64,000 bases of DNA from a virus. Below, piece after piece: positions 33,589-50,567 of this stretch; the first letter of the stretch is position 1, and every line of letters begins with the position of its first letter. Both the position numbers and the translations under genes were made by a program. Under the pieces are notes generated by a model. It ran no database searches and was not told the DNA's origin. It saw only the letters and a program-made list of their open reading frames with translations. The stretch is from the IMG/VR virus record IMGVR_UViG_3300037067_026753; one strand, 5' to 3'.

Positions 33589-33687
33589 ATATCACCTCCT
33601 GTTACTTTCTATATCGTGTATTGTTTAAAAACAGCCAAGGGCGCCCAACCAATATGCGCCCCAGCTATAAAAGGTTTGCTACTTGCT

Positions 33688-34566: not shown

Positions 34567-34622
34567 AACTCTGCTCCTTGGTTAAGGGTTTTGTTGGTTA
34601 CAAAAGCAATATCGTGTGTTTC

Positions 34623-34964: not shown

Positions 34965-35026
34965 TATCCCTCCTTGTTATTTGCTATATCGCGTGCTGCT
35001 CATGGTTCTGCCTATACCCGAACCAC

Positions 35027-35248
35027 TCATAATCGCAAACAAGAGACTCGCACAAAATTCCTGCCTGTCTCGTACGCTCTTACTGGCTTGCCACATTTCG
35101 GGCAAATTTTGGGTGGCTCTAACTGGTCAGGCCATGTTACATAGCGACAAGAGCTACAAATTAGCTGGTGGTCAACATGCCCACCATACGCCTTCTTGTC
35201 ATATTCAAAAAGTTTACCACCACATTTCGGGCAAATCAAGTCGCTCAT
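35027..35248 (-). CDS. zinc-ribbon protein
   Basis: Two CPKCG…C…C motifs. SD GGAGAAGC. Confidence 0.45.
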   Translation of the reverse strand: MSDLICPKCGGKLFEYDKKAYGGHVDHQLICSSCRYVTWPDQLEPPKICPKCGKPVRAYETGRNFVRVSCLRL

Positions 35249-35478
35249 AATGCTTCTCCAGCTGCTTGTTCGGCATTTGACATGTCAGCCAAATGTTTGC
35301 CACGCTCAATAAAAAAACGTACTTGATCCCTGTACTTCTTGGGTATTGTGTCCCAAGTCTCTCGGATCCGCACCACTTCTTCGACTTTGTCAGTCCAGTG
35401 CGTAAATTCGTCAGCCTCATGTATGGGTAATCCCCAACTATTCTTGGGCTGATAATCGTCTTCTTTTTTCCGTTTCAT
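35245..35478 (-). CDS. hypothetical small protein
   Basis: Coupled within the 35.0-35.84 kb cassette. Confidence 0.4.
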   Translation of the reverse strand: MKRKKEDDYQPKNSWGLPIHEADEFTHWTDKVEEVVRIRETWDTIPKKYRDQVRFFIERGKHLADMSNAEQAAGEAL

Positions 35479-35837
35479 TTTTCGTACTCCGGCTTCCACA
35501 TTACAAAGTTCAAGTACTGCTGCTCAGTCCACTCGTACTCAATATCATTGCCGAAAGTCAACTGGTACTGTACAGCTTCAACAAGCGTATCATGCACTGC
35601 TTTTGTATAGGTTATCCCATACCTTGGTATGTTTTCACGCAGCCCGCTCGCCAAACTACAATTTATAAGGTATAGGATTTTATGGTTAGGCATGTCGAGC
35701 AAAGCGACGATCATGTTAGCCACTTTATGTGCCAACTCAATCATTACCTGTGGTATTGCTTCAGGGTGCTCAAGGTCAATCCCACACCCAGCCAAAAAAA
35801 CCTCGCACAACCGGCTACGTTCATTTTGCGTGTTCAT
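35475..35837 (-). CDS. cassette gene, hypothetical
   Basis: Element CACGATATGGTTAGAGTAATAAAGGAGAGAGT then ATG. Confidence 0.5.
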   Translation of the reverse strand: MNTQNERSRLCEVFLAGCGIDLEHPEAIPQVMIELAHKVANMIVALLDMPNHKILYLINCSLASGLRENIPRYGITYTKAVHDTLVEAVQYQLTFGNDIEYEWTEQQYLNFVMWKPEYEK

Positions 35838-35931
35838 ACTCTCTCCTTTATTACTCTAACCATATCGTGCGCTCAAAACAAAAAAGCCAAGGTTACCCCT
35901 GGCTCATTTTATACTTGTTAGTTCTTTATTT

Positions 35932-36846
35932 CTAAAAGTGTCGTTTAAATTCTTTTGCATTGTTTAAACCAACCAAGTAATCTTGAGCAGCTTTAAGCGT
36001 CAAGCTATGCGTACCCTGGAAACTCACATACCGTATTTCAACTTTGTTACCCTTGTGCGTTGCACTGGCGCCAAATAACGGCTGGTGCTCTCCTTGTTGC
36101 TTATTCCAGGGTGTCGCTTCCCATGTTCTCAAGTGTCCGTTTATTGCGTCAGCAACTTCCATAGCACACATCCCGTATACATCCTTAGTCACACGTGCTT
36201 TCGGCTTGTACCCGGTCACTACTGGTGCTGCACTCTTGTCTGCAAGTAAATTGCTTGCTTCACCTACCGGCAACAACTTAACCAGGGTACTCTCATCCAC
36301 GTTCAACCCGTGCTGAGTCTGCAAAAATACTCCCAGTTGGCAAGCAACCTGTGTTTGCATTGTGCCCAGTTCCTCTTCAGCCTGCTGCACAACGAAATCG
36401 TCATTCTCGCCAAAATGGCTCAATATGGTATCAGCCTGCGACAAAAAGTCTTCCAGTTTCCTCTTACCAGCACTCCCACCAGCCACAGCCTCGTACAAAT
36501 CTTTCTTCAAGTCGGCTATCCTGCTGCGCAGCTCCTGGCGGCTATCTCCCAAGCGCTCTTTCATCCGGCTCCGCACCGTTTTAGGCCGCTCAACTTGCTC
36601 CGTTATTATTTGGCCATCAAGCCCACGGTAACGCTCCAGGGTACAGGGCACCTCGCCATTGTACATAAGTGTACGGGTCATCTGCTCAAAAGTGAGCGCC
36701 ACCCTTGCCACCAGCCTGCCATCAGGGTCTTTTATTTCCATGCTTACGTAGTGGTGCTGGGGTACCATTGCTCCATTGAGCCAGCTACCACTGCTGCTGG
36801 TCATGGTCATACACACTGTGCTTGTTTCTTTGCCTTCCAATTTCAT
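35932..36846 (-). CDS. hypothetical protein (304 aa)
   Basis: ATGA coupling to the upstream gene. SD AGGGAGAGAGGGACC. Confidence 0.5.
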   Translation of the reverse strand: MKLEGKETSTVCMTMTSSSGSWLNGAMVPQHHYVSMEIKDPDGRLVARVALTFEQMTRTLMYNGEVPCTLERYRGLDGQIITEQVERPKTVRSRMKERLGDSRQELRSRIADLKKDLYEAVAGGSAGKRKLEDFLSQADTILSHFGENDDFVVQQAEEELGTMQTQVACQLGVFLQTQHGLNVDESTLVKLLPVGEASNLLADKSAAPVVTGYKPKARVTKDVYGMCAMEVADAINGHLRTWEATPWNKQQGEHQPLFGASATHKGNKVEIRYVSFQGTHSLTLKAAQDYLVGLNNAKEFKRHF

Positions 36847-37121
36847 ATTAGGTCCCTCTCTCCCTGTTCGTAAATACGAAAATCAGTTTCCTCTCGTGCA
36901 ATTTCATCAAGCGTAGTTTCGAGCTGCTTAAGCATTTGTTCAGCCGCTCGCTTGTCAGCAGCTATACGCATACACTTGTCGTATCGTTCACTGGGCATAC
37001 ACGGCCTGCACGTATCAAACTGGCATGTTTCAAACGTAAGTATGTCAATTTGAGTAATTTCGGGCAGTGCCTCAGCCGCCTGCTGCGCTCTCATTTCGCG
37101 TTCGTTGCTGTCATCCCACAT
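36843..37121 (-). CDS. cassette gene, hypothetical acidic protein
   Basis: Element CACGATATAGCAACTAACAAGGAGTTGTT then ATG. Confidence 0.5.
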   Translation of the reverse strand: MWDDSNEREMRAQQAAEALPEITQIDILTFETCQFDTCRPCMPSERYDKCMRIAADKRAAEQMLKQLETTLDEIAREETDFRIYEQGERDLI

Positions 37122-37163
37122 AACAACTCCTTGTTAGTTGCTATATCGTGTGAAGCCAGGCTC

Positions 37164-37268
37164 CTTACCAGGTCATGTTCTTAAACACCTGGCGGTGCTT
37201 GCCAAAACCGAAATCCAAATAAACCACGCACTTGGGCTGCATCTTAAAAAACTTACGTACCTGTGCCA
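37164..37268 (-). CDS. 34-aa micro-ORF (MAQVRKFFKMQPK…)
   Basis: SD AACAAGGAGCAAGTT precedes the ATG. Lies between the FtsK-like gene and the next cassette. Confidence 0.3.
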
Positions 37269-37290
37269 TAACTTGCTCCTTGTTTAGGTG

Positions 37291-38379
37291 TTACTTGCCA
37301 CATATTTTCTTTATATCAGGTTCGGGCACCCATATGCCCTGGTATTTTGTCAACTCTCCATTGCACTTAAATAATAACTCTCCAGCTCCTTTAAGGCGCT
37401 CAGCCCCCGGCTCATCAAGTATTATGCGACTATCTTGTCTGCTCTCTACTCTAAAAGCCACCCTTGCTGGCATGTTAGCCTTTATCAAACCTGTCATTAT
37501 TTCGACTACCGGGCGCTGTGTTGCCATTACAATATGCATACCAGCAGCCCTTGCCAACTGTGCCAACCGAGTTATTTTATCACTTATTGTCTTGTCTTCG
37601 CTCTGCATCATCAAGTCAGCCACCTCATCAATTACCAAAACTATATATGGTAACTTTGTTTTGGCTACTTGGTTATATGCATCAAGAGATTTAACGTCGT
37701 GCCTTGCAAGCAACTCATACCGGCTCTCCATTTCGTCTACCAAACTACTAAGCAAACCGCTTGCTTGGTCAAGTTTAGTAGCTATAGGTGCATACAAGTG
37801 CGGTACGCTCCGGTACAAAGCAAACTCAACCCGTTTTGGGTCAACCAATGCGAGTTGCACTTGCTCCGGCTGTAATTTATACAACAAACTCAGTATAGCA
37901 ACGTTCAAGAAAACAGATTTACCCGAGCCAGTAGTACCGGCTACCAATAAATGGGGCATACGGCTCAAATCAATTACCTTGTTTGCGCTCAATACTACTG
38001 GCAACCGCTCATTTGCTATATGATTAAAGGTTGTTATGCCCGTAAAATCAAGTGGAGTGGCATTAACTACAGGAGTGCTAACGTCTGGTGTAGTTGATGC
38101 CACTAAATCTGCAGGAAACATTATCAAATACTTGCTCACTTCAAAATCAATCTCTCCTATATATTTAAGGTCGCGCTCAATTTTATCAAGCTTACTCGCT
38201 ATCATCCCTACGTTCACACGTTTTATGCGCTCTACCTCGTCCTCCACCTCACTATAATGTAACCTGGCCTGCATTTGCCTTATGTCTAACGGGCTCGCGC
38301 CGCACCCTACCATGCTACTCAACGTTTTACACAACGCCCGGTCAACTTTCAAAGTTTCCAATATCTCCTTAAGATTCAT
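37291..38379 (-). CDS. FtsK/SpoIIIE-family DNA translocase ATPase (soluble motor domain only)
   Basis: Walker A LVAGTTGSGKSV. Walker B IVLVIDEVADLMM. FtsK signature ATQRP…ARVAFRV. No N-terminal TM region or gamma domain. Confidence 0.75.
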   Translation of the reverse strand: MNLKEILETLKVDRALCKTLSSMVGCGASPLDIRQMQARLHYSEVEDEVERIKRVNVGMIASKLDKIERDLKYIGEIDFEVSKYLIMFPADLVASTTPDVSTPVVNATPLDFTGITTFNHIANERLPVVLSANKVIDLSRMPHLLVAGTTGSGKSVFLNVAILSLLYKLQPEQVQLALVDPKRVEFALYRSVPHLYAPIATKLDQASGLLSSLVDEMESRYELLARHDVKSLDAYNQVAKTKLPYIVLVIDEVADLMMQSEDKTISDKITRLAQLARAAGMHIVMATQRPVVEIMTGLIKANMPARVAFRVESRQDSRIILDEPGAERLKGAGELLFKCNGELTKYQGIWVPEPDIKKICGK

Positions 38380-38425
38380 AGTCGCTCCACATGGGTTATT
38401 GGTTTACGTAGCGTTATATCGTGCG
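38380..38425 (-). promoter_or_regulatory. cassette promoter for the FtsK-like gene; a second gene-less copy lies at 38490-38515
   Basis: CACGATATAACGCTACG...GGAGCGACT then ATG. A tandem upstream copy reads CACGATATAGTGTATAGG. Confidence 0.5.
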
Positions 38426-38829
38426 CTTTTCCTTAACTAACCAAAACATACATGCTAAATACTCGCCAGGGTACTATACCCATGTTTACCCTATACACTA
38501 TATCGTGTGCTATATTGCTGGCAGCCACAACACACCCGCCAAAAATTGTACCCTGCCAAAACTATAACAAAACAGTTAAACAGCGCGCACAAGCAGCCAA
38601 ATAACAACTCTAACACACTAAAAGCTATCTAGCGTTGTAGCGCTATCACCACATGAATTACAAGATTTAGAGCAACCTACTTGTGGAATTTACTAACATA
38701 TTTACTAGCATAAAAGGTAGGAATATAGCACAACATATAACTCATACAAAAAGAGCGGAGCAAACCGTGGTAGCACTCCATAAGTTCACCCCGCCCAGTA
38801 TTGCATAAGAGTTACGAAAGGAGAAGCTC

Positions 38830-39246
38830 TTACGCAAAATATTTGGTTACCAACTCGTTCAACTCGTCCTGGCTGGTCACTTTCCCCAGCATACGCGTTT
38901 TCCCCAGGTGGTTCTTCTTCGCTTCTTCCTCGCTTACTGCTTTAAAACCCTTCAACCCGGTTACCTTATGGGTCAAACCCACACTGGCTCCACGTACCCA
39001 CATACGTTTCTCTCCGGCTTCTGCCGTAATTACGTACTTGGTCTCATTCACGGTCACGCCCTTGGTTGCCTTAATTTTCAAAGGCTCCTTCTTCACACGC
39101 GGCTGCTTTGCCTTCTTGTCCTTGTCTACCGGCTTAGTCTGCTTGGGTTCCGGTTTTTTCCCTGTTGCGGCTTTCTTCGCCATTTCGTCTTCTCCTCCTA
39201 CCGGCTGCGTATCTCCCGCCTCCGGAATCGTTCCTGTATCGCCCAT
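38830..39246 (-). CDS. lysine-rich histone-like (H1/Hc1-like) DNA-binding protein
   Basis: N-terminal AKKAATGKKPEPKQTKPVDKDKKAKQPRVKK tail, followed by a small globular C-terminal domain. Confidence 0.45.
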   Translation of the reverse strand: MGDTGTIPEAGDTQPVGGEDEMAKKAATGKKPEPKQTKPVDKDKKAKQPRVKKEPLKIKATKGVTVNETKYVITAEAGEKRMWVRGASVGLTHKVTGLKGFKAVSEEEAKKNHLGKTRMLGKVTSQDELNELVTKYFA

Positions 39247-39337
39247 ATCGTCAACTCCTTCTAGAAAATCAGTTGAACTAGCATCTACAGCATAAATTTA
39301 TATCGTGCACTCAATATTATGTCTTTTATTTTACAGT

Positions 39338-39568
39338 TTACCCAGCAAATCTATGTGCAGCCTCTATCTCTTCTCTGCTCAATATACTCTCTTCCTTATA
39401 AACTATAACTACCGGCGCTCTATCCTCCTCCAACCCAGTATTATAAGCAACACACTCTACTACATGCAATGCCTTCTCAAAGCGCTCCTGATATAGCCGC
39501 GCCTCTTCTCTCCCAAACTCCTTATTCACCGCAAGCAGCTCCCTCAATTTTTTCGTTTCTATCAGCAT
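39338..39568 (-). CDS. hypothetical small protein
   Basis: SD AGGAGGAATAGTT then ATG. Confidence 0.45.
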   Translation of the reverse strand: MLIETKKLRELLAVNKEFGREEARLYQERFEKALHVVECVAYNTGLEEDRAPVVIVYKEESILSREEIEAAHRFAG

Positions 39569-39570
39569 AA

Positions 39571-39782
39571 CTATTCCTCCTGCTGCTCACACACGTGCGC
39601 AACAAACTTGTCCAAATTTATCTCTTCGTTCAACTTATCTTCATTCCCTCTATACTTACACCCTTTACACTTTTTATCAGCTCCCGGCTCCTTACAAAAC
39701 GAAAGCCGAAAGATAATATTCGTGGCAAACAAACCACAACGATACTCCTTCTCCCACCTACGCTTTCTTTTCATACTACTCA
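39571..39782 (-). CDS. Cys-rich small protein (start MSSMKRKRR or MKRKRR)
   Basis: GCGATATGAGTAGTATG is a leaderless-type configuration. CKGCKYRG motif. Confidence 0.35.
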
Positions 39783-39829
39783 TATCGCCCGAACATCTAT
39801 TACATTGCCAACACAGAACGACACCTAGC

Positions 39830-39875
39830 AGACGCACGCGCCTGCACGCGCTACGCGCGTACGCGAAGCTCTCGA
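39830..39875. repeat. GC-rich palindromic cluster (CACGCGC x2 plus TACGCGCGTA)
   Basis: cgcacgcgcctgcacgcgctacgcgcgtacgcg. Related ACGCGC clusters occur at 21230-21340 and 23090-23150. Confidence 0.5.
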
Positions 39876-40079
39876 GTTTTTCAAACTTGCTCGATATGCC
39901 CGAGCCACAACCAACAAAAAACAAGCAACAAAAAAACTCCCTCAACAACCAGCCACATGCCCGACACACCCGAGCAAACTTGCATAACTATTTACCAGTG
40001 CACTTGAATGCGCATATACGCGCTTGCAATTCTCATATACATTATGCGTTCTAGAACACGTTTATAGGGTTATAGGAAC

Positions 40080-40210
40080 TGAACAGCAAAAACAGGGCCC
40101 TAGTTTCTTATAGCTGTTCAGTCTTATAGCCGTTCAGCATAGCTGCTCAAGCTGTTCTCTTAGCGGGTTCTGTTTAGCTGCTCTCGTTCTTTAAGCTGTT
40201 TAAAGCCGTT
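40080..40210. repeat. iteron-like direct repeats (about 8 copies of AGCYGYTC at 11-16 nt spacing); candidate replication origin
   Basis: tagctgttcag / tagccgttcag / tagctgctcaag / ctgttctc / tagctgctctcg / aagctgttt / agccgtttt. Located in the divergent intergenic region. Confidence 0.5.
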
Positions 40211-40352
40211 TTAGGTCTTGTATAGTTGTTCTACCATGTTTTGTAGTGAGTTTGTTGTTTCCTTTTTTGTTTGTTTGGATGTCGTGTGTTTTTTTTTAGA
40301 TTGCCATGTTTTTATAGTTTATAATTTCTTGTTGTTGAATGGGGGGTTTTGT

Positions 40353-41186
40353 ATGTTTGAGCGTAGGGAGTTTCGTGTTGGTTGGTTGCGGGCGTGGTGG
40401 GTGTGGTGTAGGGAGGTAGATCGAGTTAGTAGGTGGAGGGAAGTTGTAGTTATAAAGCGTAGGCTTGAGTGTGAGTTGGTAGAGCGGGCGTTTGTGCGTA
40501 TGAATAGGGTTGGTTGGACGGCGATGTTGGGTTGTGATGATTATGACCGGTGTGTTGAGTTGGGCGTGAGTTTGAATGTGGCTGGGGTGCATTTGGTGCG
40601 GGATGGTAGTGTGGGGCGTGGTTGTACGTGGTGGGAGGCGCCGGTGGTGGTTAGGGAAGCAGCTGGTTTGGAGCCCTTGTATGGGCATGTGGGTAGTAGA
40701 GCTGTAGGTGTTACAGGTATGCAGGGTGTGACTGGCGCGGGAGGGTTGTGGGATAACCGTAATAATGACGTTTGGTATGAGCCTACATTACGTGGTACTG
40801 GTTTTGGGGATATAGTTGAGCCTGTTGCAATAGGTGACGTTAGTTATGCTGATTATTTTGGTGGTAGGCCGGTGGAGGTGCAGGTAAGTTTTGACGTGGT
40901 TAAGAATAAGCAGTTAGTGGAGCAGGGCCCTAAGGTTAATAGGCGTATGGGTTGGGTGGTAAATGAGCGTATAGAGCAGCAGCCCAAGCCTGAGCAGCCA
41001 GTAATGGGACAGCATATAGAGCAGCCGGGGTGTGTGCATACAAAGCCCGTTGTAGTGGCACACCCGTTGGTGAGCGACCCGGCTGCAAGGGTTAGGGCCC
41101 GTTGGGCTGAGTTATTGCGGTTAGCAGACGCAACACATAATGAAAACGAGCGTACTGGTGATGATACCCGTGAGCAGGGTGCATAG
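40353..41186 (+). CDS. G/V/W-rich hypothetical protein next to the iterons (possible Rep?); start uncertain
   Basis: 322-aa ORF from 40218. The best ATG with a G-rich SD is at 40353. Composition is very unusual because the strand is C-depleted. Confidence 0.35.
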   Translation: MFERREFRVGWLRAWWVWCREVDRVSRWREVVVIKRRLECELVERAFVRMNRVGWTAMLGCDDYDRCVELGVSLNVAGVHLVRDGSVGRGCTWWEAPVVVREAAGLEPLYGHVGSRAVGVTGMQGVTGAGGLWDNRNNDVWYEPTLRGTGFGDIVEPVAIGDVSYADYFGGRPVEVQVSFDVVKNKQLVEQGPKVNRRMGWVVNERIEQQPKPEQPVMGQHIEQPGCVHTKPVVVAHPLVSDPAARVRARWAELLRLADATHNENERTGDDTREQGA

Positions 41187-41541
41187 AGGGTGATATATAG
41201 ATAGTTGGGTATGAGCCGTGAGGAGGAGTTATGTTGTGGGAGAGCTTGAAGCGTTATTATTTGTAGTTGATTTGCACTATACAGAGCATGCCGTTGATAA
41301 GCTTGTAGATAAGCTTGACTTGACAAATTACGCTATGGTGCGTATGAAGGAGGAGGGTGGATATGCGCAGGTTTAAATAGTGCAAGCTGCTGGCCATACC
41401 CTGAGTTTTATGTAGTAGAGTATAGAGTGTGGTTTTTGTTGTAGTTGTGGTAAAAATAGTATACCAATAGATATAACCATAGTAAGCAGCTTGAAGTAGT
41501 GGGTAATATGTATGATAACCCAGAGTTGAGGGAGCAGGTAG

Positions 41542-41736
41542 TTGGGAAAGAGTAGTGAACCAATTAGAATGTGGACAGTTTTAAGTGATTGTGCAATATG
41601 CCATATTACCGTGCCGGGGGCGCCTTATTTGAGTACTGATATTAGGTATACGCTTGACGAATATAAACGCATAATGGAGTATGAGTTACGCCAGCAGAAA
41701 CGGAAGCGGCGAGCACATAGCACACATTTTAAATAA
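41542..41736 (+). CDS. hypothetical small protein
   Basis: ORF at the head of the rightward operon. Confidence 0.35.
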   Translation: MGKSSEPIRMWTVLSDCAICHITVPGAPYLSTDIRYTLDEYKRIMEYELRQQKRKRRAHSTHFK

Positions 41737-41746
41737 GGAGTTTTTA

Positions 41747-41902
41747 TGCAGTTTGGTTGCGGGCATAGCATAGTAAAGTGTAAGGCATGTGGTAAGGTGA
41801 TAAGCCAGTGCCGGTGTTTGAATGCAAATAAGCCGGTGGTGTGGAGCGTGTGCGACAAATGTAAGGCTGGTGTTGACCCTAAGCAAGAGGTAAGGGGATG
41901 AG
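41747..41902 (+). CDS. 51-aa Cys-rich zinc-binding protein
   Basis: CGHSIVKCKACGKVISQCRC…CDKCKAG. SD aaggag. Confidence 0.35.
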
Positions 41903-41904
41903 CT

Positions 41905-42183
41905 GTGTGCGTGATAACAAGAAAAGCAGATGACGTAGTGGTGAGCATTAGTTTGATACCTGGGTTAGCCAGACTGATGAATGATAGATTACAGGGTGGG
42001 CAGTATGTGTTGTTTTGCGAAGATTGTGCCCGTAAAGCTGGATTAGAGAGCAGTTTTGAAAATAGTATTATAGGCGTGATAGCAGGACAGGGCGTGTGTT
42101 GTCAGGGTTGTGATAGGGATATAGGTGGTAGAGATGTTTATTTGCCCGATAAGCGTTTGAAATTTAAGTGGATAGCAAAATAA
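41905..42183 (+). CDS. KFKWLA-family protein A (C-terminal …RLKFKWIAK)
   Basis: Cys-rich, with the C-terminal motif shared by 43933..44331, 44344..44937 and 44941..45219. Confidence 0.45.
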   Translation: MCVITRKADDVVVSISLIPGLARLMNDRLQGGQYVLFCEDCARKAGLESSFENSIIGVIAGQGVCCQGCDRDIGGRDVYLPDKRLKFKWIAK

Positions 42184-42801
42184 ATGTTGAGTGAACGTTG
42201 TAAGTATTGTGTGCATAGAGATGATAATGAGAGGGTTTCACACTGGCAACAAAATTTTAGTTGTATAAAGTGTGCTGGTTTGAGCAGCTTGGTTTTTTTT
42301 AAGTTGGATAGAACACAGATTAATAAAACGGTAGTTGAAAAACCAAGGCCAAGTGCTGCTGGACGGTTCAAGTTTGTGTTTAAGGATATGTATGATGAGA
42401 AGAAGCAAGACGATAACCGTAAGCAGTACGTACAGGATTTAGTAAACAAGTTAGCTGCTCTACATCGTAGCCAGTTGACACGGTTTGTAGGTTTGTTAGA
42501 GCGCATAAAAGAGTTTAAGGATGTGGAGCCGTGGCAGTGGGTGTGGTATGACTGTGATAACCCGATAACATGGCCAGAGCTCGGTGTGCCCGTGCTTGTT
42601 ATGGTAGGGCAAGCTTATAACCGGTATTATATGGTTTTAGAGCGCAGGGTGTTAGAGCGTAATGGGAGTGTGGATAAGTGTTGCTGGTTTATGCATGTTG
42701 AAAATTGGTTTTTGCGTGACGATATGAACGTGGTGTGTTGGTGTTTAATAGGCCCACCGCCCGTATTACCTGCACCAGTGCCGACAGCGATACCTATATG
42801 A
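42184..42801 (+). CDS. hypothetical protein (205 aa), N-terminally Cys-rich
   Basis: CKYCVHRDD…CIKCAG. Confidence 0.45.
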   Translation: MLSERCKYCVHRDDNERVSHWQQNFSCIKCAGLSSLVFFKLDRTQINKTVVEKPRPSAAGRFKFVFKDMYDEKKQDDNRKQYVQDLVNKLAALHRSQLTRFVGLLERIKEFKDVEPWQWVWYDCDNPITWPELGVPVLVMVGQAYNRYYMVLERRVLERNGSVDKCCWFMHVENWFLRDDMNVVCWCLIGPPPVLPAPVPTAIPI

Positions 42802-43010
42802 ATATACGTAAACTAGCAAGACGTAAACCGGCAACAAGAATAGCTGTACCAGAAGAGGTAAAAAGTAAAGTAATACGTGTGCGTGTAACTGAGCAAGAAT
42901 TTAAGACAATATATAGTGCTGCTAAACAGCGTGGAGTAACAGTAAGTATGTTGTTGATTGAAACTGTATTGAAAAAAATAAAAAGGGAGTTAAAAAATGG
43001 ATGTGCTTGA
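42799..43010 (+). CDS. ribbon-helix-helix (CopG/MobC-like) DNA-binding protein
   Basis: IRVRVTEQEFKTIYSAAKQRGVTVSMLLIETVLKKI shows the beta-strand/helix/helix pattern of RHH proteins. Confidence 0.45.
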
Positions 43011-43155
43011 TGGTATTGAAAAGTTTGCTGACAGAGTGGGTAAGCTATTTGGGAGTAAGGGGTGGGTGATAAAAGCATTTGTTATGTTTGCGTGCGTGCT
43101 TGTGTGTGGCGGGTTGATAGTGATAGGAGCACTTGCAAAGAAGGATAGCAAATGA
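42997..43155 (+). CDS. 52-aa membrane peptide
   Basis: SD aaaagggag. One TM helix (VIKAFVMFACVLVCGGLIVIGAL). Confidence 0.35.
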   Translation: MDVLDGIEKFADRVGKLFGSKGWVIKAFVMFACVLVCGGLIVIGALAKKDSK

Positions 43156-43367
43156 GTGCTGACAATAGCGAAATGATGAAGGAGCTGATAGAAGCACTTT
43201 GTTTTTATGCTGACCCTGATACTTATTTTGCTATAGGTTTTTTTCCTGATTTGCCGTGTGGTGAGTTTATTAAAGATTTTGACGAGTCGAAAAAGCCTGG
43301 AGCAAGGGCCCGTAGTGTAATAAAAAAATACCAAGCAGAGTTACAGGGGTTATATGACGATAGATGA
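43152..43367 (+). CDS. hypothetical small protein
   Basis: ATGA coupling. Confidence 0.4.
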   Translation: MSADNSEMMKELIEALCFYADPDTYFAIGFFPDLPCGEFIKDFDESKKPGARARSVIKKYQAELQGLYDDR

Positions 43368-43623
43368 TGGCGAATATTACAGTGCGATACCGTATGTGCA
43401 GCTACGTAGACGCAGGGTAAGGCAGCCTGAAAAGAAGGAAATACGGCTTGACGTTGATGCATTTAGACAGGAGTTGCTTGATAATATAAAGCAGAACCCA
43501 ACACAGATAGGTGATAAGCATATTGTAATGTGTTGGCCTGAGACAGAATCAACACGCCGTGTAAGGTTGAAGAAGTTTTTAGAAAAGCGTTTTTGTGTTG
43601 CGCCCTTGTTTAGACGAGGATGA
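43354..43623 (+). CDS. hypothetical small protein
   Basis: Overlapping coupled ORF. Confidence 0.4.
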   Translation: MTIDDGEYYSAIPYVQLRRRRVRQPEKKEIRLDVDAFRQELLDNIKQNPTQIGDKHIVMCWPETESTRRVRLKKFLEKRFCVAPLFRRG

Positions 43624-43756
43624 TAGCAATATACATGTGCGCTGGTTGTTTGAAAAGACTGAAAATGGTTTTTTGGTGGCAGGTTTGAGTTTGTGAAAGC
43701 AGAGAAAAGGGTACAAAAGCAGCAAATTGAAAAAAATAAATTGAGGTTTATAGTTA

Positions 43757-43936
43757 ATGAAAACTGAGGAAGTGATAAGTGCTTTGAGCGAGGCTTGTAA
43801 GTGTGGTGATAGTGCAGGTTTGCGGCAGTACCACCAGCAGACAGCACCGCATATAAGTTATGTTGAGTGGCTTGAACGTAGAGTAGTTATATTGACTGAG
43901 TATATAGTTGAGAAAGCATTGAAAGAGCAAAAATGA
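43757..43936 (+). CDS. 59-aa hypothetical protein
   Basis: ATG with its stop overlapping the next start. Confidence 0.3.
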   Translation: MKTEEVISALSEACKCGDSAGLRQYHQQTAPHISYVEWLERRVVILTEYIVEKALKEQK

Positions 43937-44331
43937 CCATAGATGATTTGTGGCGCCCAAAGCCGAATCTGTGTGTGGCAAAAGATCTTGACGTCGAAAT
44001 GTATTATGAGGACGTAATAAGTTGTATACAGAGTAACCCAAGGCAGAATGAAAATAAGGACCGTGTGTTGTGCAGGTACCAGAATCGAAATGTTTTGTTG
44101 GTTAGGTTTGTTAGAGAGGGCTATAATTATTTTATTTTGAAGACATGGGGCTTTAAGGAAGCTTGTTCTGATTTTAGTATCAATTATAAGTTGTTGCATG
44201 TGCGTTGGGTGTTAGAGTATAGAGCAAGGCCCGATGATATAGGTAGGTTTGAGTTGGTGAGAGAAGATGATGGAGATAGAGTGCAAGTGAAAGAGCAGCC
44301 TAAAATGAAGTTTAAGTGGCTGGCAGAATAG
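43933..44331 (+). CDS. KFKWLA-family protein B (C-terminal …KMKFKWLAE)
   Basis: Shared C-terminal motif. Confidence 0.45.
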   Translation: MTIDDLWRPKPNLCVAKDLDVEMYYEDVISCIQSNPRQNENKDRVLCRYQNRNVLLVRFVREGYNYFILKTWGFKEACSDFSINYKLLHVRWVLEYRARPDDIGRFELVREDDGDRVQVKEQPKMKFKWLAE

Positions 44332-44343
44332 AAAGTTTGACAA

Positions 44344-44937
44344 ATGGCACGGCTTGGTGAGCGTAAGAGTATACGGTTAGAGAGCAATGATGGATTGGCG
44401 ACTATAAGAGCAAACTTGTTAGCTGACCCGCAGCAGACAAGCCGTAGGAAACTTATGTTTGGGAAAAGCACTGGTATAACCTATGCTAATTTTAGTTTGC
44501 CGGTTTGGTTAAAGCGCGGGTATGAGTTGTACCGGGTGCGTAATAGTATAATCGAGTGGGACAGCACGAGCCGGACGTTTAGGTTAGTGCCCAAGGTGAC
44601 AATGGATACATTGGTGGCTACGAGCGATGTGACTAAGAATAAGTTTAAATGGTTAGTTGATGAAACATTGGTTACATTAAAAAACCGCGATTTGGGTGAT
44701 ATAAGTAATGATATCCATCGATACTATGATGTAATTACAAAGCCGCCAGCGACAAAGCCTTCAAGTGGTGGACAGTCGATACCTTGGAATTATATAACAA
44801 CAAGCGAGGTGAATACGAATCCGTGTAATTGTTGTGGACTTTATGAGGTTTGTGAATCTTGTTGTGATGCTCAGTATCGTTTTGTATTTGACGATAGACC
44901 CGAGCCAAAGCCTAAGTTTGCATTTGTGTTTGGGTGA
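44344..44937 (+). CDS. KFKWLA-family protein C (two fused units; internal …NKFKWLVDE, C-terminal …PKFAFVFG)
   Basis: Shared motif at mid-protein and a related one at the C-terminus. Confidence 0.45.
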   Translation: MARLGERKSIRLESNDGLATIRANLLADPQQTSRRKLMFGKSTGITYANFSLPVWLKRGYELYRVRNSIIEWDSTSRTFRLVPKVTMDTLVATSDVTKNKFKWLVDETLVTLKNRDLGDISNDIHRYYDVITKPPATKPSSGGQSIPWNYITTSEVNTNPCNCCGLYEVCESCCDAQYRFVFDDRPEPKPKFAFVFG

Positions 44938-44940
44938 GTT

Positions 44941-45219
44941 ATGTGGACTGTGCGTGTAAATGATGGTTTTTGTACATGGGAGTATGAAATGACAGGTGAA
45001 CATAGTAGCGTTGCAAATACAAGTATAGCTAATGTGATTAATGCAATTACTAAGAATACTGGTTTGATAGTTACAAAAGCTACTTTTATTAATGCAATTG
45101 AGCCGCAACAAGTGGAGTCGCAGGTAGACAAGCAGAATAAGCAGAACATAAAGTTTAAAAGTGGAAAAATAGGTGACCCAAAAATAAATGTAAAGTTTAA
45201 ATTTTTAGCACAGGAGTGA
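44941..45219 (+). CDS. KFKWLA-family protein D (C-terminal …NVKFKFLAQE)
   Basis: Shared C-terminal motif. Confidence 0.45.
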   Translation: MWTVRVNDGFCTWEYEMTGEHSSVANTSIANVINAITKNTGLIVTKATFINAIEPQQVESQVDKQNKQNIKFKSGKIGDPKINVKFKFLAQE

Positions 45220-45222
45220 AGT

Positions 45223-45534
45223 ATGGTAAAAGAGATAGTGGAGAATTTTGCAAAGAGTGGTGTGTCCCAGGCTGCTTTAGAGCGTATACTTGATTTGGGC
45301 CAGGGAGATTTGAGCAAAGAAGAGACGCCAGAAATGATAGCTCTTATGCGTATTGTGGCGACATATCCTTGGTTGCTTAGTGTAGCTGAGCATCATTATG
45401 ACGAAAAGTATGCAAATAGAGTCGTGTTGCATGTGGGTGTAGATGCATTGCTCGATATGCAAGAGCAATTAGCAGGTAGTGAGTGCAAGTGCGAAAAAGA
45501 GCAGCCAGCAAGTGAAGATGCAGGTAAGAGCTAA
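45223..45534 (+). CDS. hypothetical acidic protein
   Basis: Intact ORF. Confidence 0.4.
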   Translation: MVKEIVENFAKSGVSQAALERILDLGQGDLSKEETPEMIALMRIVATYPWLLSVAEHHYDEKYANRVVLHVGVDALLDMQEQLAGSECKCEKEQPASEDAGKS

Positions 45535-45598
45535 TTTGCATTGATTTTATTTTTATTATAGATTGCGCGCAAGCGCGCACAGAGAGGGATTAGTAGTC

Positions 45599-46024
45599 AT
45601 GTGGTTGGATACATTTAATGATACTGAAATAAATGTAGGCATATGTGAAGCTTGTATGCAGGAGTTTTTCCCTGATGATAAACTTATGGAGAGTGCTGCT
45701 TCTTATCTGTGCCCTATATGTATGAGTGTAATTCAAGTAAGGGGCAAGATGGGCGTGCTTAAGTTGAGGAAAAGCGTATTTGAAGCACTCATGAACACAA
45801 AAACTAAACGTTTTATATTGTGCAAGCGTTGTGCTGACAGCAGGAATTTAACCAGCGAGAATATGACAAGTCCGTTCACAGACAAAAACAAGTATGTATG
45901 TCGGTTGTGTGGTAATAAAGAGGGACATGCTGAATATATGTTGCCGAATAAAGAAGCAGATTTGTTGTTGAGAAAAAAGAACTCGAAAACAATTGACAAG
46001 TTAAAATTTCGTTTTATACAGTGA
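45599..46024 (+). CDS. zinc-finger protein (start MWLDTFND)
   Basis: CEACMQEF…CPICMSV and CKRCADS…CRLCG motifs. SD agagaggga. Preceded by a TATTATAGAT box and a GCGCGCAAGCGCGC hairpin. Confidence 0.45.
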   Translation: MWLDTFNDTEINVGICEACMQEFFPDDKLMESAASYLCPICMSVIQVRGKMGVLKLRKSVFEALMNTKTKRFILCKRCADSRNLTSENMTSPFTDKNKYVCRLCGNKEGHAEYMLPNKEADLLLRKKNSKTIDKLKFRFIQ

Positions 46025-46031
46025 GTGTTAA

Positions 46032-46337
46032 ATGGCAAGAATTTGTGGCAAGCGTGGTAGAGCGATACCGTCAAGTAAGGTTTTTTGTTTCGATTGTGAG
46101 GTGAGCATGTTGGAGAAGCAGAAGAGCCCTGATGAAGAATTGAGAATGAGAGCCAATGAAATAATGTTGGGTTCAAAAGGTTTCATGTTGTTTGCTGTTA
46201 CTCATTCTGGCGCAATAGAAGCTGTAGGTGATACAACTAGACTTACGACAGTAGAACAACTTGGACTTGAGTACTATGTGCAAGAATTTAATCCGATTGA
46301 AATTGATGAAGACGAAGACGACCGAGCACCTTTTTGA
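46032..46337 (+). CDS. hypothetical protein
   Basis: Intact ORF. Confidence 0.4.
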   Translation: MARICGKRGRAIPSSKVFCFDCEVSMLEKQKSPDEELRMRANEIMLGSKGFMLFAVTHSGAIEAVGDTTRLTTVEQLGLEYYVQEFNPIEIDEDEDDRAPF

Positions 46338-46349
46338 ACAGGAGAAAAT

Positions 46350-46847
46350 GTGGCTCTAGCTTTAAATATAGGTTGCCATGACATACATATTGCTGGTATG
46401 GTAAATGTAGACAATGACGCAGCAATGAAGCCTGATTTGTTATTAGATTGTACGAAATTGACAAGCAAGTTTGAAAAGAACAGCGTTGATTTTGTGTATG
46501 CCGGGCATTTTTTTGAGCATTTTGATGTGCATGTAGGCAAACAAATTGTAATCGATATTTTTACTATATTGAAGGATTATGGTGTTCTAGTTGCTACAGT
46601 ACCAGATTATACAAAATGTTTTGGTATGAAGATTGAGGAAGCTGAGCGAATTATTATAGCAGTGGGTACCCATAAGGTACTTATGAACATAGATAGATTG
46701 AGAGATTATTTGTGTTGTGCTGGTTTTAAAACTGTGGTACAAGCAAAGCCGAGTGAGTTAGCACATTGTCCGTTTCCTAATGTAGAGTGGCAGACAAGTA
46801 TAATAGGCATAAAGCACCCGCATATAAATTTCCATGGTATAGCATAG
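46350..46847 (+). CDS. class I SAM-dependent methyltransferase (GTG start)
   Basis: Motif I LNIGCHD (hhhhGCG-like) and VDFVYAGHFFEHF (post-II). SD ggag 5 nt upstream of the GTG. Confidence 0.5.
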   Translation: MALALNIGCHDIHIAGMVNVDNDAAMKPDLLLDCTKLTSKFEKNSVDFVYAGHFFEHFDVHVGKQIVIDIFTILKDYGVLVATVPDYTKCFGMKIEEAERIIIAVGTHKVLMNIDRLRDYLCCAGFKTVVQAKPSELAHCPFPNVEWQTSIIGIKHPHINFHGIA

Positions 46848-47051
46848 TTACCAGTACCATGTGTTGTTTTCATCTACGCTTGTGTCAATGCGGCCATTGA
46901 TTCTATCTGATATGTTTGTTATGATTATGCTCAAGAATGCAGCAATGCCTATAATCCATAAAATAGTTTGTAACATAAGATTAATATACTACAATTAATA
47001 GGCTTTTGAATCAGTTCGAGTAGGTACGGGCACATAGGTAATTATGGTGTT

Positions 47052-47396
47052 TTATTTTTTTATGGTTAGCCGCCATAGAATGATTGCTTTGCCGAGGTGC
47101 CCAGTTTTGCAAAGGTCTATTTTACTTAAAGTTGAGTAGTTTGTGGTGAGCAGTCCGCTGTTGAACCCTGAGCCCGTGTATTCGGGACAATCGTCAAAAA
47201 AAACATATTTTTTGATACTGTCGGGCGAAATTGGGGGATGTGACAGTATAAGGTTAAGAGCGCCGAAAGCTTTTCGAATTGCTATGCTTTGCTGATTTCG
47301 TGCTAAAATTTCTTTGAGAGCCTCAAAATCTGCAAGGGTGTATGTGTGTGTCATGGTTTTACTCCTAAGGTATACAGGGCAATGTACAAAAGGCAA
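47052..47396 (-). CDS. hypothetical protein
   Basis: Intact ORF just outside the island. Confidence 0.4.
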   Translation of the reverse strand: MPFVHCPVYLRSKTMTHTYTLADFEALKEILARNQQSIAIRKAFGALNLILSHPPISPDSIKKYVFFDDCPEYTGSGFNSGLLTTNYSTLSKIDLCKTGHLGKAIILWRLTIKK

Positions 47397-47446
47397 CCAT
47401 AGATAATTATTAGGTTGCCTTTTGGGTATGACTACGACCGTCGCGC

Positions 47447-49027
47447 TTATAAAGATAATGAAATTAGTTTGGGCCTGATTTTTGTATCCACCAGGACAAT
47501 TTTTGTTTGTGCTGTGGCCGGGTATTTTGTGTTTGTTATTACTTTGAGTGATGCAAGTTCTCCCATGAGTGCACCGTCATAGGTGATTGTTACCAGGTTG
47601 CTGGTGTTTGCCTGGAATTCCGAGTTGTTGATTTGATGAATTGCACCCTGTAATGACGAACCTGCTCTGAAAGCGTAAGTTGCACCACCTGAACCGGCAA
47701 TATGGATATAACCTTTGAACAAGCCAGGCCAACCGATTTGCCAGAGTTTCCCGCCGTCTTTTACGTAGAGCAACGTAGTAGAACTCGAGCTTGATTCGTA
47801 CCAGTTACTGTTGATGCTCAACTCTTTGCTTACTATGAAAATTACTTTGCCGGAAAAGATGCCCTGAACATCAGCAGTATAGAATGTTGGTACCGAATTG
47901 GAAATGGCAACAACCAGATAACCATTCCAAAGTTGATCGGCTGGTGTGTTGTCGTATGCATTTTGCAAGTTGGTACCGTTGAGTTTTGTGAAACCTAACG
48001 TTGAGAATTCTTTGATTTTATCCGAGGAAATTGTTGTCATGTTGATTATCGTTGCGTTTTCATTACCGCCTGAGATGTCAACATAGTCACTGATATTGAA
48101 GGAGCCTTTGTTTTCAAGAGCAGTGAGATTTTGGAATTGAGAAGCCATGCAACTACCTGAATGATAGGCTTTGTGGTTTTTCATGTCGACTTTGAAGGTG
48201 CCACTGATACTGTTCGTAAAGTACCCTTCTCCATTGATATTGAGCGTGTTGAGCAGTTCAATATTTCTTTTGAAACCTGCTTTACCATTGACATCAAGTG
48301 AAGAGTTTTGCAATTTTACGGGCGTTTGGAAATAGGCATTTCCGTTAACAGTGAGTTGCCCGTTGAATTCCGTAGTAGTTCCATTGTCCCCGGTTTTGAG
48401 ATAGCCGTTGATGATCGAGCCCGAGGCGTTGGAATTGAACCGAACGCCACCACCGAAGTAGACATTGCCGTTGACGGTCATTTTCTGGTTGAAGTCGTAG
48501 CCGTCTTTCTGGATGTAGATTGCAAAGTCCTGTACGGATGGTCGGTCAAATTCGGTACCGTCGAGTTGGTATGTTGCAACGGCTGTTTTTTTCTTGCCTG
48601 AAAATTGACCATAGCCGTTTCCTTGAACTATGATATGCGGGATGTTGTAACCGCCGTCACCTAATGCTTCACCGATTCCAAGAATGCAGACTGAAAATTT
48701 GGCTGGGTCGGTGACATTTGTGCTCATCGAGATTTTCTGTTCGCTTGAAGGGTCCGCCGAAAGGAGCCATTTTTTCGATTTTTCGGTCAGGTAATTGTTC
48801 ATTACCGTTATCGATTCAACGGATTTCTTTTCAAGTTGGGTTTCGCAGGCTTTAACCGCAGTCGAAGCAGCCTGGTATGCGGAACGTGTTTTCCCTGCGT
48901 TTGCAACATTTGTCCTGTCATAACCGACCGTTTTGAGCATGACAGCGCCGGTAATACCGACGACGCAAACGAGACAAAGGGTGTAGACAATTGCGGCTGA
49001 ACCGCGTTGATTGTTAAAGTTGAACAT
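47447..49027 (-). CDS. PilX-like type IV pilus minor pilin/tip protein
   Basis: PilX_N-like N-terminus NQRGSAAIVYTLCLVCVVGITGAV. Large beta-rich C-terminal domain with NGN.YF repeats. SD aaaggaggttct. Confidence 0.55.
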   Translation of the reverse strand: MFNFNNQRGSAAIVYTLCLVCVVGITGAVMLKTVGYDRTNVANAGKTRSAYQAASTAVKACETQLEKKSVESITVMNNYLTEKSKKWLLSADPSSEQKISMSTNVTDPAKFSVCILGIGEALGDGGYNIPHIIVQGNGYGQFSGKKKTAVATYQLDGTEFDRPSVQDFAIYIQKDGYDFNQKMTVNGNVYFGGGVRFNSNASGSIINGYLKTGDNGTTTEFNGQLTVNGNAYFQTPVKLQNSSLDVNGKAGFKRNIELLNTLNINGEGYFTNSISGTFKVDMKNHKAYHSGSCMASQFQNLTALENKGSFNISDYVDISGGNENATIINMTTISSDKIKEFSTLGFTKLNGTNLQNAYDNTPADQLWNGYLVVAISNSVPTFYTADVQGIFSGKVIFIVSKELSINSNWYESSSSSTTLLYVKDGGKLWQIGWPGLFKGYIHIAGSGGATYAFRAGSSLQGAIHQINNSEFQANTSNLVTITYDGALMGELASLKVITNTKYPATAQTKIVLVDTKIRPKLISLSL

Positions 49028-49038
49028 AGAACCTCCTT

Positions 49039-50142
49039 TTAAAAAATTCCGTTGTTGAGCGTTTCGATTGTTTCAGTGCGTGTTTTCCATTCGTATTTCC
49101 CCGTTCTAGCTATTGATATGTTTCCTATTTCAAATGGAGTAGTTTGGGCGTTACCTATATCGTTGGATTTGCTCCTTGTGACCATGGAAATTTTTATTGC
49201 GCGTACTGTTTTCTTTTTGGCAACTGATACACTGTCGAGCCATACAAATTTGCCGTAGTCCTGGCGTCTTACTTCAACACCATTGAGCATAAGTTGCCCT
49301 GAACTTTTTGTCCAGTATCGTATGGCAATTTTTCCTGTAGACGTTGCTTGCGTGTTGATTGTCAGGTGCTGGACGCGATTAACAGGCAGGAATTTTTCCA
49401 CGCCCTTGTTTACTGTACTGTTGACAATACAACATTGTAGCGAATCGAATATTTTGTCAGATACAATATCCAGTGCGACATTAAGGCGTTGGTTGGTGTC
49501 ATTTGCAAATGATGTGTTGTAATAGATCATCCCTCTGCTTATACCAGAGAAATCGAACCGAACAGAGGAGCCTACGACTGTTGCTGTTGGTGTCGCACCG
49601 GATTCTGAGGCAATCAACCAGTTGCCGGGGATAGGTATCGGGTTCAAGTCCTGGAGCATCGAATCATTGGCAAATACTCCATATTGAAATTGTAGTCCTT
49701 GTACGTTAGCGCAAAATCGCAATTTCTGATTGTTGAGTTTCCTTATAAGGTTGTTCGAATCCAAATAGAATTCAACCGAGTCGGTCCGGACGTATTCACC
49801 GGTTTCTGACAGTTTTGCTTTGTAAATTTTCAGAGTGTCACTTGGGTCGCCCTGGCGTGCAACAAATGATGATGAATCCGCGATAAATGCGTTCGAAACA
49901 AGGTGTTTGTCGAATTTGGTGCCGTTGGGCGTCAGGTAGAATTTGCAGCCCATGTTGCGTATTTCGCGTACAAGGACGACAAGTGCATCTCTTGCATCGA
50001 TCTGCATTTTTGTCATTTGCTGGGTTCTGTTGCTACTCTTGGTTATGTCGGCATAGGATTTGTGCCAGAGTGAAATGACGATGCCGAAGATTACAATGCA
50101 GATCAGCAGTTCGATAATTGAAAGACCTTTTTGGTTGTTCAT
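49039..50142 (-). CDS. type IV minor pilin (PilW-like) with a class III (prepilin) signal
   Basis: MNNQKG|LSIIELLICIVIFGIV: Gly at -1, Glu at +5, hydrophobic helix. Confidence 0.6.
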   Translation of the reverse strand: MNNQKGLSIIELLICIVIFGIVISLWHKSYADITKSSNRTQQMTKMQIDARDALVVLVREIRNMGCKFYLTPNGTKFDKHLVSNAFIADSSSFVARQGDPSDTLKIYKAKLSETGEYVRTDSVEFYLDSNNLIRKLNNQKLRFCANVQGLQFQYGVFANDSMLQDLNPIPIPGNWLIASESGATPTATVVGSSVRFDFSGISRGMIYYNTSFANDTNQRLNVALDIVSDKIFDSLQCCIVNSTVNKGVEKFLPVNRVQHLTINTQATSTGKIAIRYWTKSSGQLMLNGVEVRRQDYGKFVWLDSVSVAKKKTVRAIKISMVTRSKSNDIGNAQTTPFEIGNISIARTGKYEWKTRTETIETLNNGIF

Positions 50143-50465
50143 TATATCCCCCTTGCAAACTGGGCATTTTTTGTTTTGTTGAAGGCACGCCAGGTGACTG
50201 TGATTGTTACTTGACTTACCTTTCCGGTGTCGGTGATTGTCCAGGTACGGACAAATTTGTAGTTGTCGACAACGGTTGAATCGACTCCGTTTGAGGGAGT
50301 GATTTGCACTTTGAGTTCCGCGAATTTGTCTTCAGCGACCAATTGCGCATTGTCGTTTAACCGCGCATCCTGTGACATCAGCAGAACATTGCGATAGCTC
50401 GCTGACATGTTGAGAGATACCATTGCAAGGATGAACAATGCAATGATCAAACTGAGCAGCCTCAT
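50142..50465 (-). CDS. pilus-associated small protein (PilV-like?; start MRLLSLIIALF)
   Basis: N-terminal hydrophobic helix but no canonical G-F-T-L-I-E motif. SD GTAGGAGGCACC. Preceded by CACGATATCTCT. Confidence 0.4.
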   Translation of the reverse strand: MRLLSLIIALFILAMVSLNMSASYRNVLLMSQDARLNDNAQLVAEDKFAELKVQITPSNGVDSTVVDNYKFVRTWTITDTGKVSQVTITVTWRAFNKTKNAQFARGI

Positions 50466-50520
50466 GGTGCCTCCTACGTTAATTTTTGGTGAAGTTTTTT
50501 TCCTACAATGAGAGATATCG
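50466..50520 (-). promoter_or_regulatory. promoter of the pilin operon, using the same CACGATAT core
   Basis: Minus strand GCGCACGATATCTCTCATTGTAGG...GTAGGAGGCACC then ATG. Confidence 0.45.
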
Positions 50521-50567
50521 TGCGCCCGGGTGTAATCTGCCAACTATATTACATAGAACAGTGAGAA

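Follow-up and report, generated by a model that had tools for sequence, protein, structure and literature searches.

A recurrent basic-aromatic peptide, probably a shared tag, on six neighbouring small proteins of a mobile element binned to Candidatus Nanoarchaeia

When several small proteins encoded side by side carry nearly the same short peptide, mostly at their C-termini, the question arises whether that peptide reflects common descent, base composition or a shared function. We addressed this question for the IMG/VR virus record IMGVR_UViG_3300037067_026753, a stretch of 64,000 nucleotides analysed at its full length (hereafter the window), which carries an uncharacterised mobile element, be it a provirus, a plasmid or another kind, binned to Candidatus Nanoarchaeia, the archaeal assignment being a database label. 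Its rightward operon comprises approximately 15 tightly packed small genes (41.7-46.9 kb), in which the motif [KR]-F-x-[FW]-[LIV] was found in seven in-frame copies, distributed over six proteins between positions 42160 and 46018 of the plus strand. The motif is probably a shared tag on six neighbouring, mostly unrelated small proteins.

The recurrent peptide and its frequency

An earlier note on this DNA had described four operon proteins with such an ending or, in one case, an internal copy; all four were recovered where it placed them and with the residues that it quoted, and the nucleotide variants that it listed (TGGATAGCA, TGGCTGGCA and TGGTTAGTT) were correct. The motif is real and more widespread than had been reported, with further copies found inside the 205-amino acid (aa) open reading frame (ORF; GRFKFVFKD), at the end of the 153-aa ORF (DKLKFRFIQ) and at the end of a frameshifted pseudogene (NKLRFIVNEN), the last of these being an eighth, degenerate copy. 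The tail peptides of the carrier proteins include EQPKMKFKWLAE, DPKINVKFKFLAQE and TIDKLKFRFIQ. A six-frame scan of all 64 kb with the pattern [KR][FM][KRA][FW][LIV] returned one remaining match, at 50759 on the minus strand.

Statistics were computed with the strict motif [KR]F[KRA][FW][LIV], and the residues of each of the 15 operon proteins were permuted within that protein so that composition was kept. Whereas 0.03 occurrences were expected in the 1,632 residues of the operon, seven were observed, a count that none of 20,000 shuffles reached; the motif fell within the last 14 residues of five of the 15 proteins, the expectation being 0.05 and no shuffle of the 20,000 giving as many. The window has 494 six-frame ORFs that are 40 aa or longer, and none but these five ends in the motif. 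Two of 2,393 control ORFs, drawn from 36 other loci, ended in it, one of which was a homologue of an operon protein on the diverged contig L046 (SRR12486999_57053) described below. The density of the motif was approximately one per 233 residues in the operon and one per 10,400 in the controls; by the shuffles and the control ORFs alike, it is much more frequent than chance would allow.

Conservation of the peptide and modularity of its carriers

Across the seven copies, the basic residue at motif position 1 was encoded by AAA, AAG or CGG, position 3 by AAG, AAA, CGT or GCA, the aromatic residue at position 4 by TGG or TTT, and the aliphatic residue at position 5 by ATA, GTG, CTG or TTA. Substitutions therefore preserve the class of the residue and not the bases, and the motif is conserved in L046, in line with the previous suggestion that the constraint lies on the peptide. 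On this evidence, it is the peptide on which selection acts.

The relative in question was retrieved by a HMMER search with the 141-aa form of the 153-aa carrier against 1.84 billion representative proteins, which returned a single diverged homologue (P0136, 93 aa, 51% identity) ending in ...TDKLKFRFLGA. It is encoded on the 11-kb contig L046, which carries a reduced and diverged version of the operon and, after it, the pilin-like gene cluster that is also present in the window. Four pairs of motif copies could be compared: NKFKWLVDE of the window with NKFLWLVDE of L046 (pair identity 63%), VKFKFLAQE with KKFIFIDTL (39%), the terminal LKFRFIQ with the terminal LKFRFLGA (44-50%), and GRFKFVFKD with NRFRFIFKL, the latter in a remnant. 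Motif positions 1, 2 and 4 were identical in all four pairs, position 5 stayed aliphatic and position 3 was free, whilst the orthologue pairs overall were 39-63% identical; the chance of twelve identities at those levels, estimated from the pair identities, is of the order of 1e-4. In the 153-aa protein, the DKLKFRF block showed no more variation than the Zn-ligand blocks ILCKRC and VCRLCG. The motif could be refined from this comparison to [KR]-F-x-[FW]-[LIV]-[AVF]-x(0,1)-[EDQ].

Linkers upstream of the motif differed between orthologues by indels of 19 and 2 residues with the motif unchanged; the L046 orthologue of carrier 92b (Table 1) has a linker that is 19 residues shorter, yet keeps PKIN-KKFIFI, which is internal there. 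The 15 residues preceding the motif were 60-80% polar or disorder-promoting, compared with 52-60% over the entire length of the proteins. Other copies of the element were found in six samples, including NCBI GCA_028717785.1 and JGI contigs of approximately 424 kb, and were at least 99% identical in the operon; in the most diverged of them, L032, the operon was 100% identical and hence uninformative for polymorphism-based selection analysis.

The carriers had been regarded in the earlier note as a paralogous family, a proposal that held for two pairs. By hhalign, carrier 92a and the C-terminal half of the 153-aa protein aligned over 57 columns (E 4e-4), the two sharing a Zn ribbon followed by Y-x-L-P-[DN]-K, and BLASTP matched the 132-aa carrier to the adjacent pseudogene at E 8e-5. 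In the remaining 19 unit pairs, compared with both programs, alignment was confined to the motif or absent. The units with Cys pairs ahead of the tag in the 205-aa protein (its first 66 residues) and in the 197-aa protein (its C-terminal half) gave no significant alignment, and the 132-aa carrier and the N-terminal unit of the 197-aa protein aligned over 27 columns without significance (E 0.13). In five units the tag is preceded, at a distance of 9-17 residues, by a second strand resembling [RK]xFx[LV]V, which was likewise not statistically significant. Judged from these alignments, the carriers appear to be two small paralogous groups plus unrelated proteins, with one common tag. AlphaFold2 single-sequence models were of very low confidence, with a mean predicted local distance difference test (pLDDT) score of 38.5 for the 132-aa carrier and 30.8 for the 197-aa carrier.

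The 197-aa protein had been proposed to be a fusion of two units, and this was borne out by L046, where its N-terminal unit exists as a separate 122-aa ORF (63% identity, KNKFLWLVDET) and its C-terminal Zn-knuckle unit is absent. The 92b orthologue of L046 is fused, right after the tag, to the tail of the orthologue of a 103-aa protein. The remnant of carrier 205 on L046 begins just before the tag and keeps NRFRFIFK and ...LVNKL. The tag accordingly marks the ends of modules and is retained where a fusion has placed it inside a protein.

A CxxC...CxxC Zn-ribbon architecture was present in four units, the proteins or modules concerned being approximately 65-95 aa long. In the copy L031, a 155-bp insertion at approximately 41965 (L031/L001 positions 4810-4963) splits carrier 92a into ORFs of 59 aa and 68 aa, the second of which retains the terminal KFKWIAK together with the linker and Zn ribbon that precede it. 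The pseudogene is read in frame A over 43354-43593, in frame B to 43696 and in frame A again over 43663-43767, and its sequence was the same in all copies of the element. The coordinates of these and other features are collected in Table 1.

Table 1. Motif-carrying genes and other features of the window
Feature	Coordinates	Strand	Description
Carrier 92a, 92 aa	41905..42183	+	CxxC...CxxC Zn ribbon, YLPDK, KFKWI (nt 42160-42174), AK, TAA stop; C-terminal end ...DKRLKFKWIAK
Carrier 205, 205 aa	42184..42801	+	N-terminal unit of ~66 aa with CxxC...CxxC, polar linker and internal RFKFV (nt 42364-42378); then an unrelated body of ~135 aa
NikA-like ribbon-helix-helix protein, 70 aa	42798..43010	+	PF21983, E 9.6e-8; in the operon, without the motif
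Pseudogene, decayed tandem paralogue of the 132-aa carrier	43354..43767	+	Ends ...GGRFEFVKAEKRVQKQQIEKNKLRFIVNEN; KLRFIV at 43738-43755
Carrier 132, 132 aa	43933..44331	+	No Cys motif; ends ...GRFELVREDDGDRVQVKEQPKM-KFKWL-AE (motif nt 44308-44322); quoted end ...PKMKFKWLAE confirmed
Carrier 197, 197 aa, composite	44344..44937	+	N-terminal unit ends KFKWL-VDE (nt 44641-44655; internal ...TKNKFKWLVDE..., motif at residues 100-104); C-terminal unit with CNCC...CESCC knuckle and terminal KFAFV-FG (nt 44914-44928; ...PKFAFVFG)
Carrier 92b, 92 aa	44941..45219	+	Ends ...NIKFKSGKIGDPKINV-KFKFL-AQE (motif nt 45193-45207); quoted end ...NVKFKFLAQE confirmed
Carrier 153, 153 aa (141 aa from ATG at 45599)	45563..46024	+	Two CxxC...CxxC Zn ribbons; ends ...YMLPNK...TIDKL-KFRFI-Q (motif nt 46004-46018); outside the range of the earlier note
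FtsK/SpoIIIE-family ATPase, 362 aa	37291..38379	-	Leftward operon; without transmembrane segment or gamma domain
Leftward module	28711-38379	-	Soluble FtsK/SpoIIIE ATPase, 304-aa protein, DUF932, rIIA-like and rIIB-like proteins
Island, ~32 kb	18000-50500
Iteron-like repeats	40050-40215		TCTTATAGC[T/C]GTTCAG in tandem, with AGCTG[T/C]TC variants; exactly at the skew flip
G-rich 'ORF', 322 aa	40218-41186		Rich in V, G and W
Pilin-like cluster	47447-50543	-	Converges on the operon end
tRNA, anticodon CTA (amber-reading)	6913-6985	-	ARAGORN: tRNA-Pyl; Rfam: tRNA, 60.8 bits

Database searches returned no families or distant relatives for the carriers. No significant family match was obtained in Pfam, PHROG or NCBIfam, the best weak matches being PHROG 5602 (E 3.8e-4, ribbon only) and NCBIfam PRK14890 (E 0.085), and PDB sequences gave no match. 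A search of 5.8 billion proteins with the 132-aa carrier recovered a near-identical match only. The same was true of a homologue search with the 205-aa protein, and the members of the protein clusters proved to be alternative gene calls of one sequence; an NCBI protein identical to the 205-aa carrier is annotated as hypothetical in a metagenome-assembled genome (MAG) labelled Candidatus Nanoarchaeia. Scans of IMG/VR with the DUF932 protein, the 197-aa carrier, the pilin-like protein and a Zn-ribbon-plus-motif alignment found no relatives, a blastn search of PLSDB with positions 40000-47000 found no match, nor did a tblastn search of INPHARED with two carriers, and a full-text literature search for the motif strings produced nothing relevant.

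Candidate roles of the motif

The motif is non-random, preferentially C-terminal, constrained at the peptide level and kept in the diverged relative. Its anatomy, namely unrelated carriers, a terminal position, a variable polar linker and retention upon fusion, led us to rank first a linker-tethered docking tag for one common partner, a reading that we hold tentatively and at somewhat less than an even chance. The tag would be a short linear peptide, probably a basic-aromatic beta-strand, usually followed by A, V or F and then by an acidic residue or Q, and held on a polar linker of variable length. It may insert into one pocket of a single common partner or pair with an edge strand of it, such that many different early proteins of the element, otherwise unrelated, small and about half of them Zn-ribbon proteins, would be recruited to one hub; their genes lie by the presumed origin of the integrated element or provirus. 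Binding, the single partner and the identity of that partner are here inferred.

The closest precedent is found in phage T4, in which the unrelated proteins gp43, gp55 and gp33 bind the gp45 sliding clamp through highly similar and interchangeable C-terminal tails, the linker being divergent and of variable length and the tail remaining functional when internal in a gp55-gp33 fusion (PMC2988020). The operon described here resembles that system in its unrelated carriers, its divergent linkers of variable length and the persistence of the motif inside fusions. However, the T4 tails are hydrophobic-acidic whereas the present motif is basic-aromatic, binding being suggested here by analogy, and no clamp gene was seen in the window. 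The sequence and its carriers are new, whilst the concept is a familiar one.

Several observations weigh against a docking tag. The comparative evidence comes from one diverged contig, L046, and the carriers include two true paralogue pairs; the upstream [RK]xFx[LV]V strand, not itself significant, hints at an inherited beta-hairpin module and not at an independently acquired tag. Known docking consensus sequences include the PCNA-interacting protein (PIP) box, Qxx[LIVM]xx[FYW][FYW], the AlkB homologue 2 PCNA-interacting motif (APIM), [KR][FYW][LIVA][LIVA][KR], and the bacterial beta-clamp motif QL[SD]LF. No copy fits the PIP box or the beta-clamp motif, the nearest to the former, QPKMKFKW, failing at position 7, and only one of seven fits APIM (KWIAK in carrier 92a). 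No partner candidate emerged from synteny. Finally, no motif cluster was present in the recovered stretches of L036-L045, relatives that share the leftward module of the window (FtsK 44-80% identical); in the two closest, L036 (Ga0394877_0004551) and L038 (SRR15035646_25846), the divergent arm is truncated where the contig stops.

The main rival is a true paralogous family that arose by tandem duplication, in which the bodies have diverged and the last beta-strand or hairpin is structural, serving the fold of each protein or an interface between paralogues in a homo- or hetero-oligomer, and not docking on an outside partner. The two detectable pairs (92a with the C-terminal half of 153, and 132 with the pseudogene) and the tandem arrangement of the genes are consistent with this, as are the four units that share CxxC...CxxC, linker and motif, and the upstream strand in five units together with the non-significant alignment of 132 with the N-terminal unit of 197. 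Most pairs, however, were without profile similarity, the motif occurs in carriers with and without Zn ribbons, and it follows polar linkers of varying length and was kept when the flanking domains were swapped or deleted. We consider this reading possible but rather unlikely; a docking tag and an inherited structural strand are not mutually exclusive.

More doubtful is the proposal that the motif is itself a direct ligand patch, a beta-strand that contacts nucleic acid or anchors the protein to a membrane surface. The basic and aromatic alternation K-F-K-W would suit such a role, several carriers belong to the Zn-ribbon proteins, which are often nucleic acid binders, and the weak NCBIfam hint (E 0.085) was to a Zn-ribbon RNA-binding protein; we also take the motif to resemble the RNP1 strand of RRMs and the KFKYKG strand of Sso7d. 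Yet basic character at position 3 was not retained in L046 (K to L, K to I), making a charge-based contact less plausible, and a binding surface of its own would need more than five residues. No carrier matched the RRM, CSD or Sso7d families in Pfam or NCBIfam. The RNP1 consensus, [RK]-G-[FY]-[GA]-[FY]-[ILV]-x-[FY], occurs in an RRM or CSD fold, and its Gly at position 2 is absent from every copy.

A signal in the nucleotides was considered and rejected as the main explanation, and we regard it as very improbable. An AARTTTAAR... sequence acting in translational coupling or re-initiation, or as recombination microhomology, would leave the peptide as a by-product; all five terminal copies do lie 24-36 nt upstream of the next start codon, and the fusion and deletion junctions in the window and L046 are directly beside motif copies. 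Only about half of the 15 nt are common to the most different copies, however (for instance AAATTTCGTTTTATA and AAGTTTAAGTGGCTG), and it is the amino acid class and not the bases that substitutions conserve. The motif is absent from most gene junctions of the operon, and two of the L046 copies are followed by another 20-30 codons before the stop, so that the spacing to the next gene is not constant. Least credible of all is a chance product of a coding strand favouring K, F, W, L and V codons, which, in spite of an extreme C-poverty of the operon (9% C at third codon positions) and motif codons that are C-free, is effectively refuted by the composition-keeping shuffles and the control ORFs, and is further contradicted by L036, L038, L042 and L043, in which an equally strong skew is found without such a cluster in the recovered stretches.

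Stop-codon recoding, or a polyprotein, was considered on the grounds that many carriers lie in one frame separated by a single stop and that the window encodes a tRNA with the anticodon CTA (Table 1), and was rejected. Stops are mixed (TAA, TAG and TGA), no single reassignment lengthens the ORFs, and the gene junctions consist of ATGA overlaps or Shine-Dalgarno-like (AGGAG-like) sequences; the C-terminal position of the motif is therefore no artefact of the genetic code. TAG is an ordinary stop in the operon, and reading it as sense gives no longer ORFs.

Other systems offer partial parallels. Type IV coupling proteins and the EccC/EssC ATPases of type VII secretion recognise short C-terminal signals on small unrelated proteins, and a FtsK/SpoIIIE-family ATPase and a NikA-like, relaxosome-type protein are likewise encoded near the motif operon. 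The ATPase here differs in being soluble and single-domain, and contains no hydrophobic segment long enough to span a membrane. The motif is also retained at internal positions, and no motif cluster was present in the recovered stretches of relatives that have the ATPase; family scans of approximately 50 island ORFs, many of them orphans, found no VirB4, VirD4, EssC-type or channel genes. Targeting peptides of encapsulin cargo and of phage internal proteins are similar in that a short terminal peptide recurs across diverse proteins of one element, but the family scans of the island identified neither a shell nor a capsid gene, and the motif is, we presume, unlike known cargo peptides. The four CxxC...CxxC units recall the small Zn-ribbon proteins of archaea and their viruses, though the carriers had no significant match to curated Zn-ribbon families, of which, to our knowledge, a shared tail motif is not a described feature.

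The element and its relatives

The two divergent operons of the element part at approximately 40050, beside the short iteron-like repeats, a region that is likely an origin or regulatory region; L031 has deletions of 3, 11 and 20 nt within it. GC skew, followed over 33000-47500, flips at this point from -0.49 just to the left to between +0.37 and +0.55 just to the right, exceeds +0.3 for approximately 6 kb and weakens farther out in either direction, the coding strand being G-rich and C-poor in both arms. The same flip (-0.55 to +0.59) was found beside the FtsK-like gene in the related elements L036, L038, L042 and L043 (FtsK 52-80% identical). The substitution spectrum between strains had no asymmetry of C/T versus G/A; replication from a fixed origin, transcription-coupled bias and exposure of single-stranded DNA are possible causes of the skew. 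The G-rich 'ORF' to the right of the repeats is probably not a conserved protein-coding gene, as it varies from 247 to 322 aa across near-identical copies, with a 51-nt deletion in L031 and a frameshifting insertion of 1 nt in L032. At position 41397, in non-coding DNA upstream of the operon, the window lacks one A relative to all five other copies (L030-L034). The rightward arm also encodes a methyltransferase.

The pilin-like cluster occurs in the window, on L046 (2325-5646) and on L047 (Ga0265297_10002817; 10001-11539), and comprises a 526-aa protein with a class III-type signal (MFNFNNQRG-SAAIVYTL...), a 367-aa protein with N_methyl and PilW matches, and a protein of 107-133 aa, at a GC content of approximately 0.44 that equals that of the island. 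Next to the diverged operon of L046, the cluster is conserved at 45% identity. The motif operon and this cluster thus occur together in two instances, the window and L046; a metagenome scan with the pilin-like neighbour retrieved one locus, on a contig that ends 166 nt short of the expected operon.

The leftward module is shared with L036-L045, in which the soluble ATPase is likewise accompanied by a protein of approximately 305 aa, a DUF932 protein and rIIA-like and rIIB-like proteins, the rIIA-like protein being a GHKL ATPase of approximately 725 aa. Graded FtsK homologues (44-92% identity) led to contigs with this module, and two diverged copies of it (FtsK 52% identical) were present in a single MAG, GCA_028717785.1, labelled as a Candidatus Nanoarchaeia archaeon. 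The neighbours of the module vary between copies and include YopX, thymidylate kinase, a CCA-adding enzyme, GIY-YIG and a papain-like peptidase. A genome scan with the FtsK-like protein gave 28 loci of at most 53% identity, with only the ATPase domain in common and no motif cluster. The FtsK-like protein had been suggested as a partner of the motif, a suggestion that finds no support in these relatives, since the recovered stretches show no motif cluster; either the partner lies outside the FtsK-DUF932-rIIA/B module, or the tag is lineage-specific.

Taken to its full extent, the docking-tag reading would amount to a previously undescribed system of tail tags, carried by a mobile element or provirus of the DPANN lineages (here binned to Nanoarchaeia), in which at least six fast-evolving orphan proteins encoded by the origin plug a KFKW[LIV] strand into one hub, either a host replication or transcription platform or a machine of the element itself, and new effectors are made by fusing and splitting tagged modules. 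As a whole we consider this picture speculative and rather unlikely. We know of almost no experimentally characterised mobile-element biology in DPANN-binned lineages. If the motif is only the structural remnant of a tandem duplication, it is an ordinary trait of a fast-evolving gene array. Should a single partner exist, however, the motif would offer a handle on proteins without detectable relatives and would show on which machine, of the cell or of the element, the early genes converge, and the tag would serve as a search key for functionally linked orphan genes in related elements.

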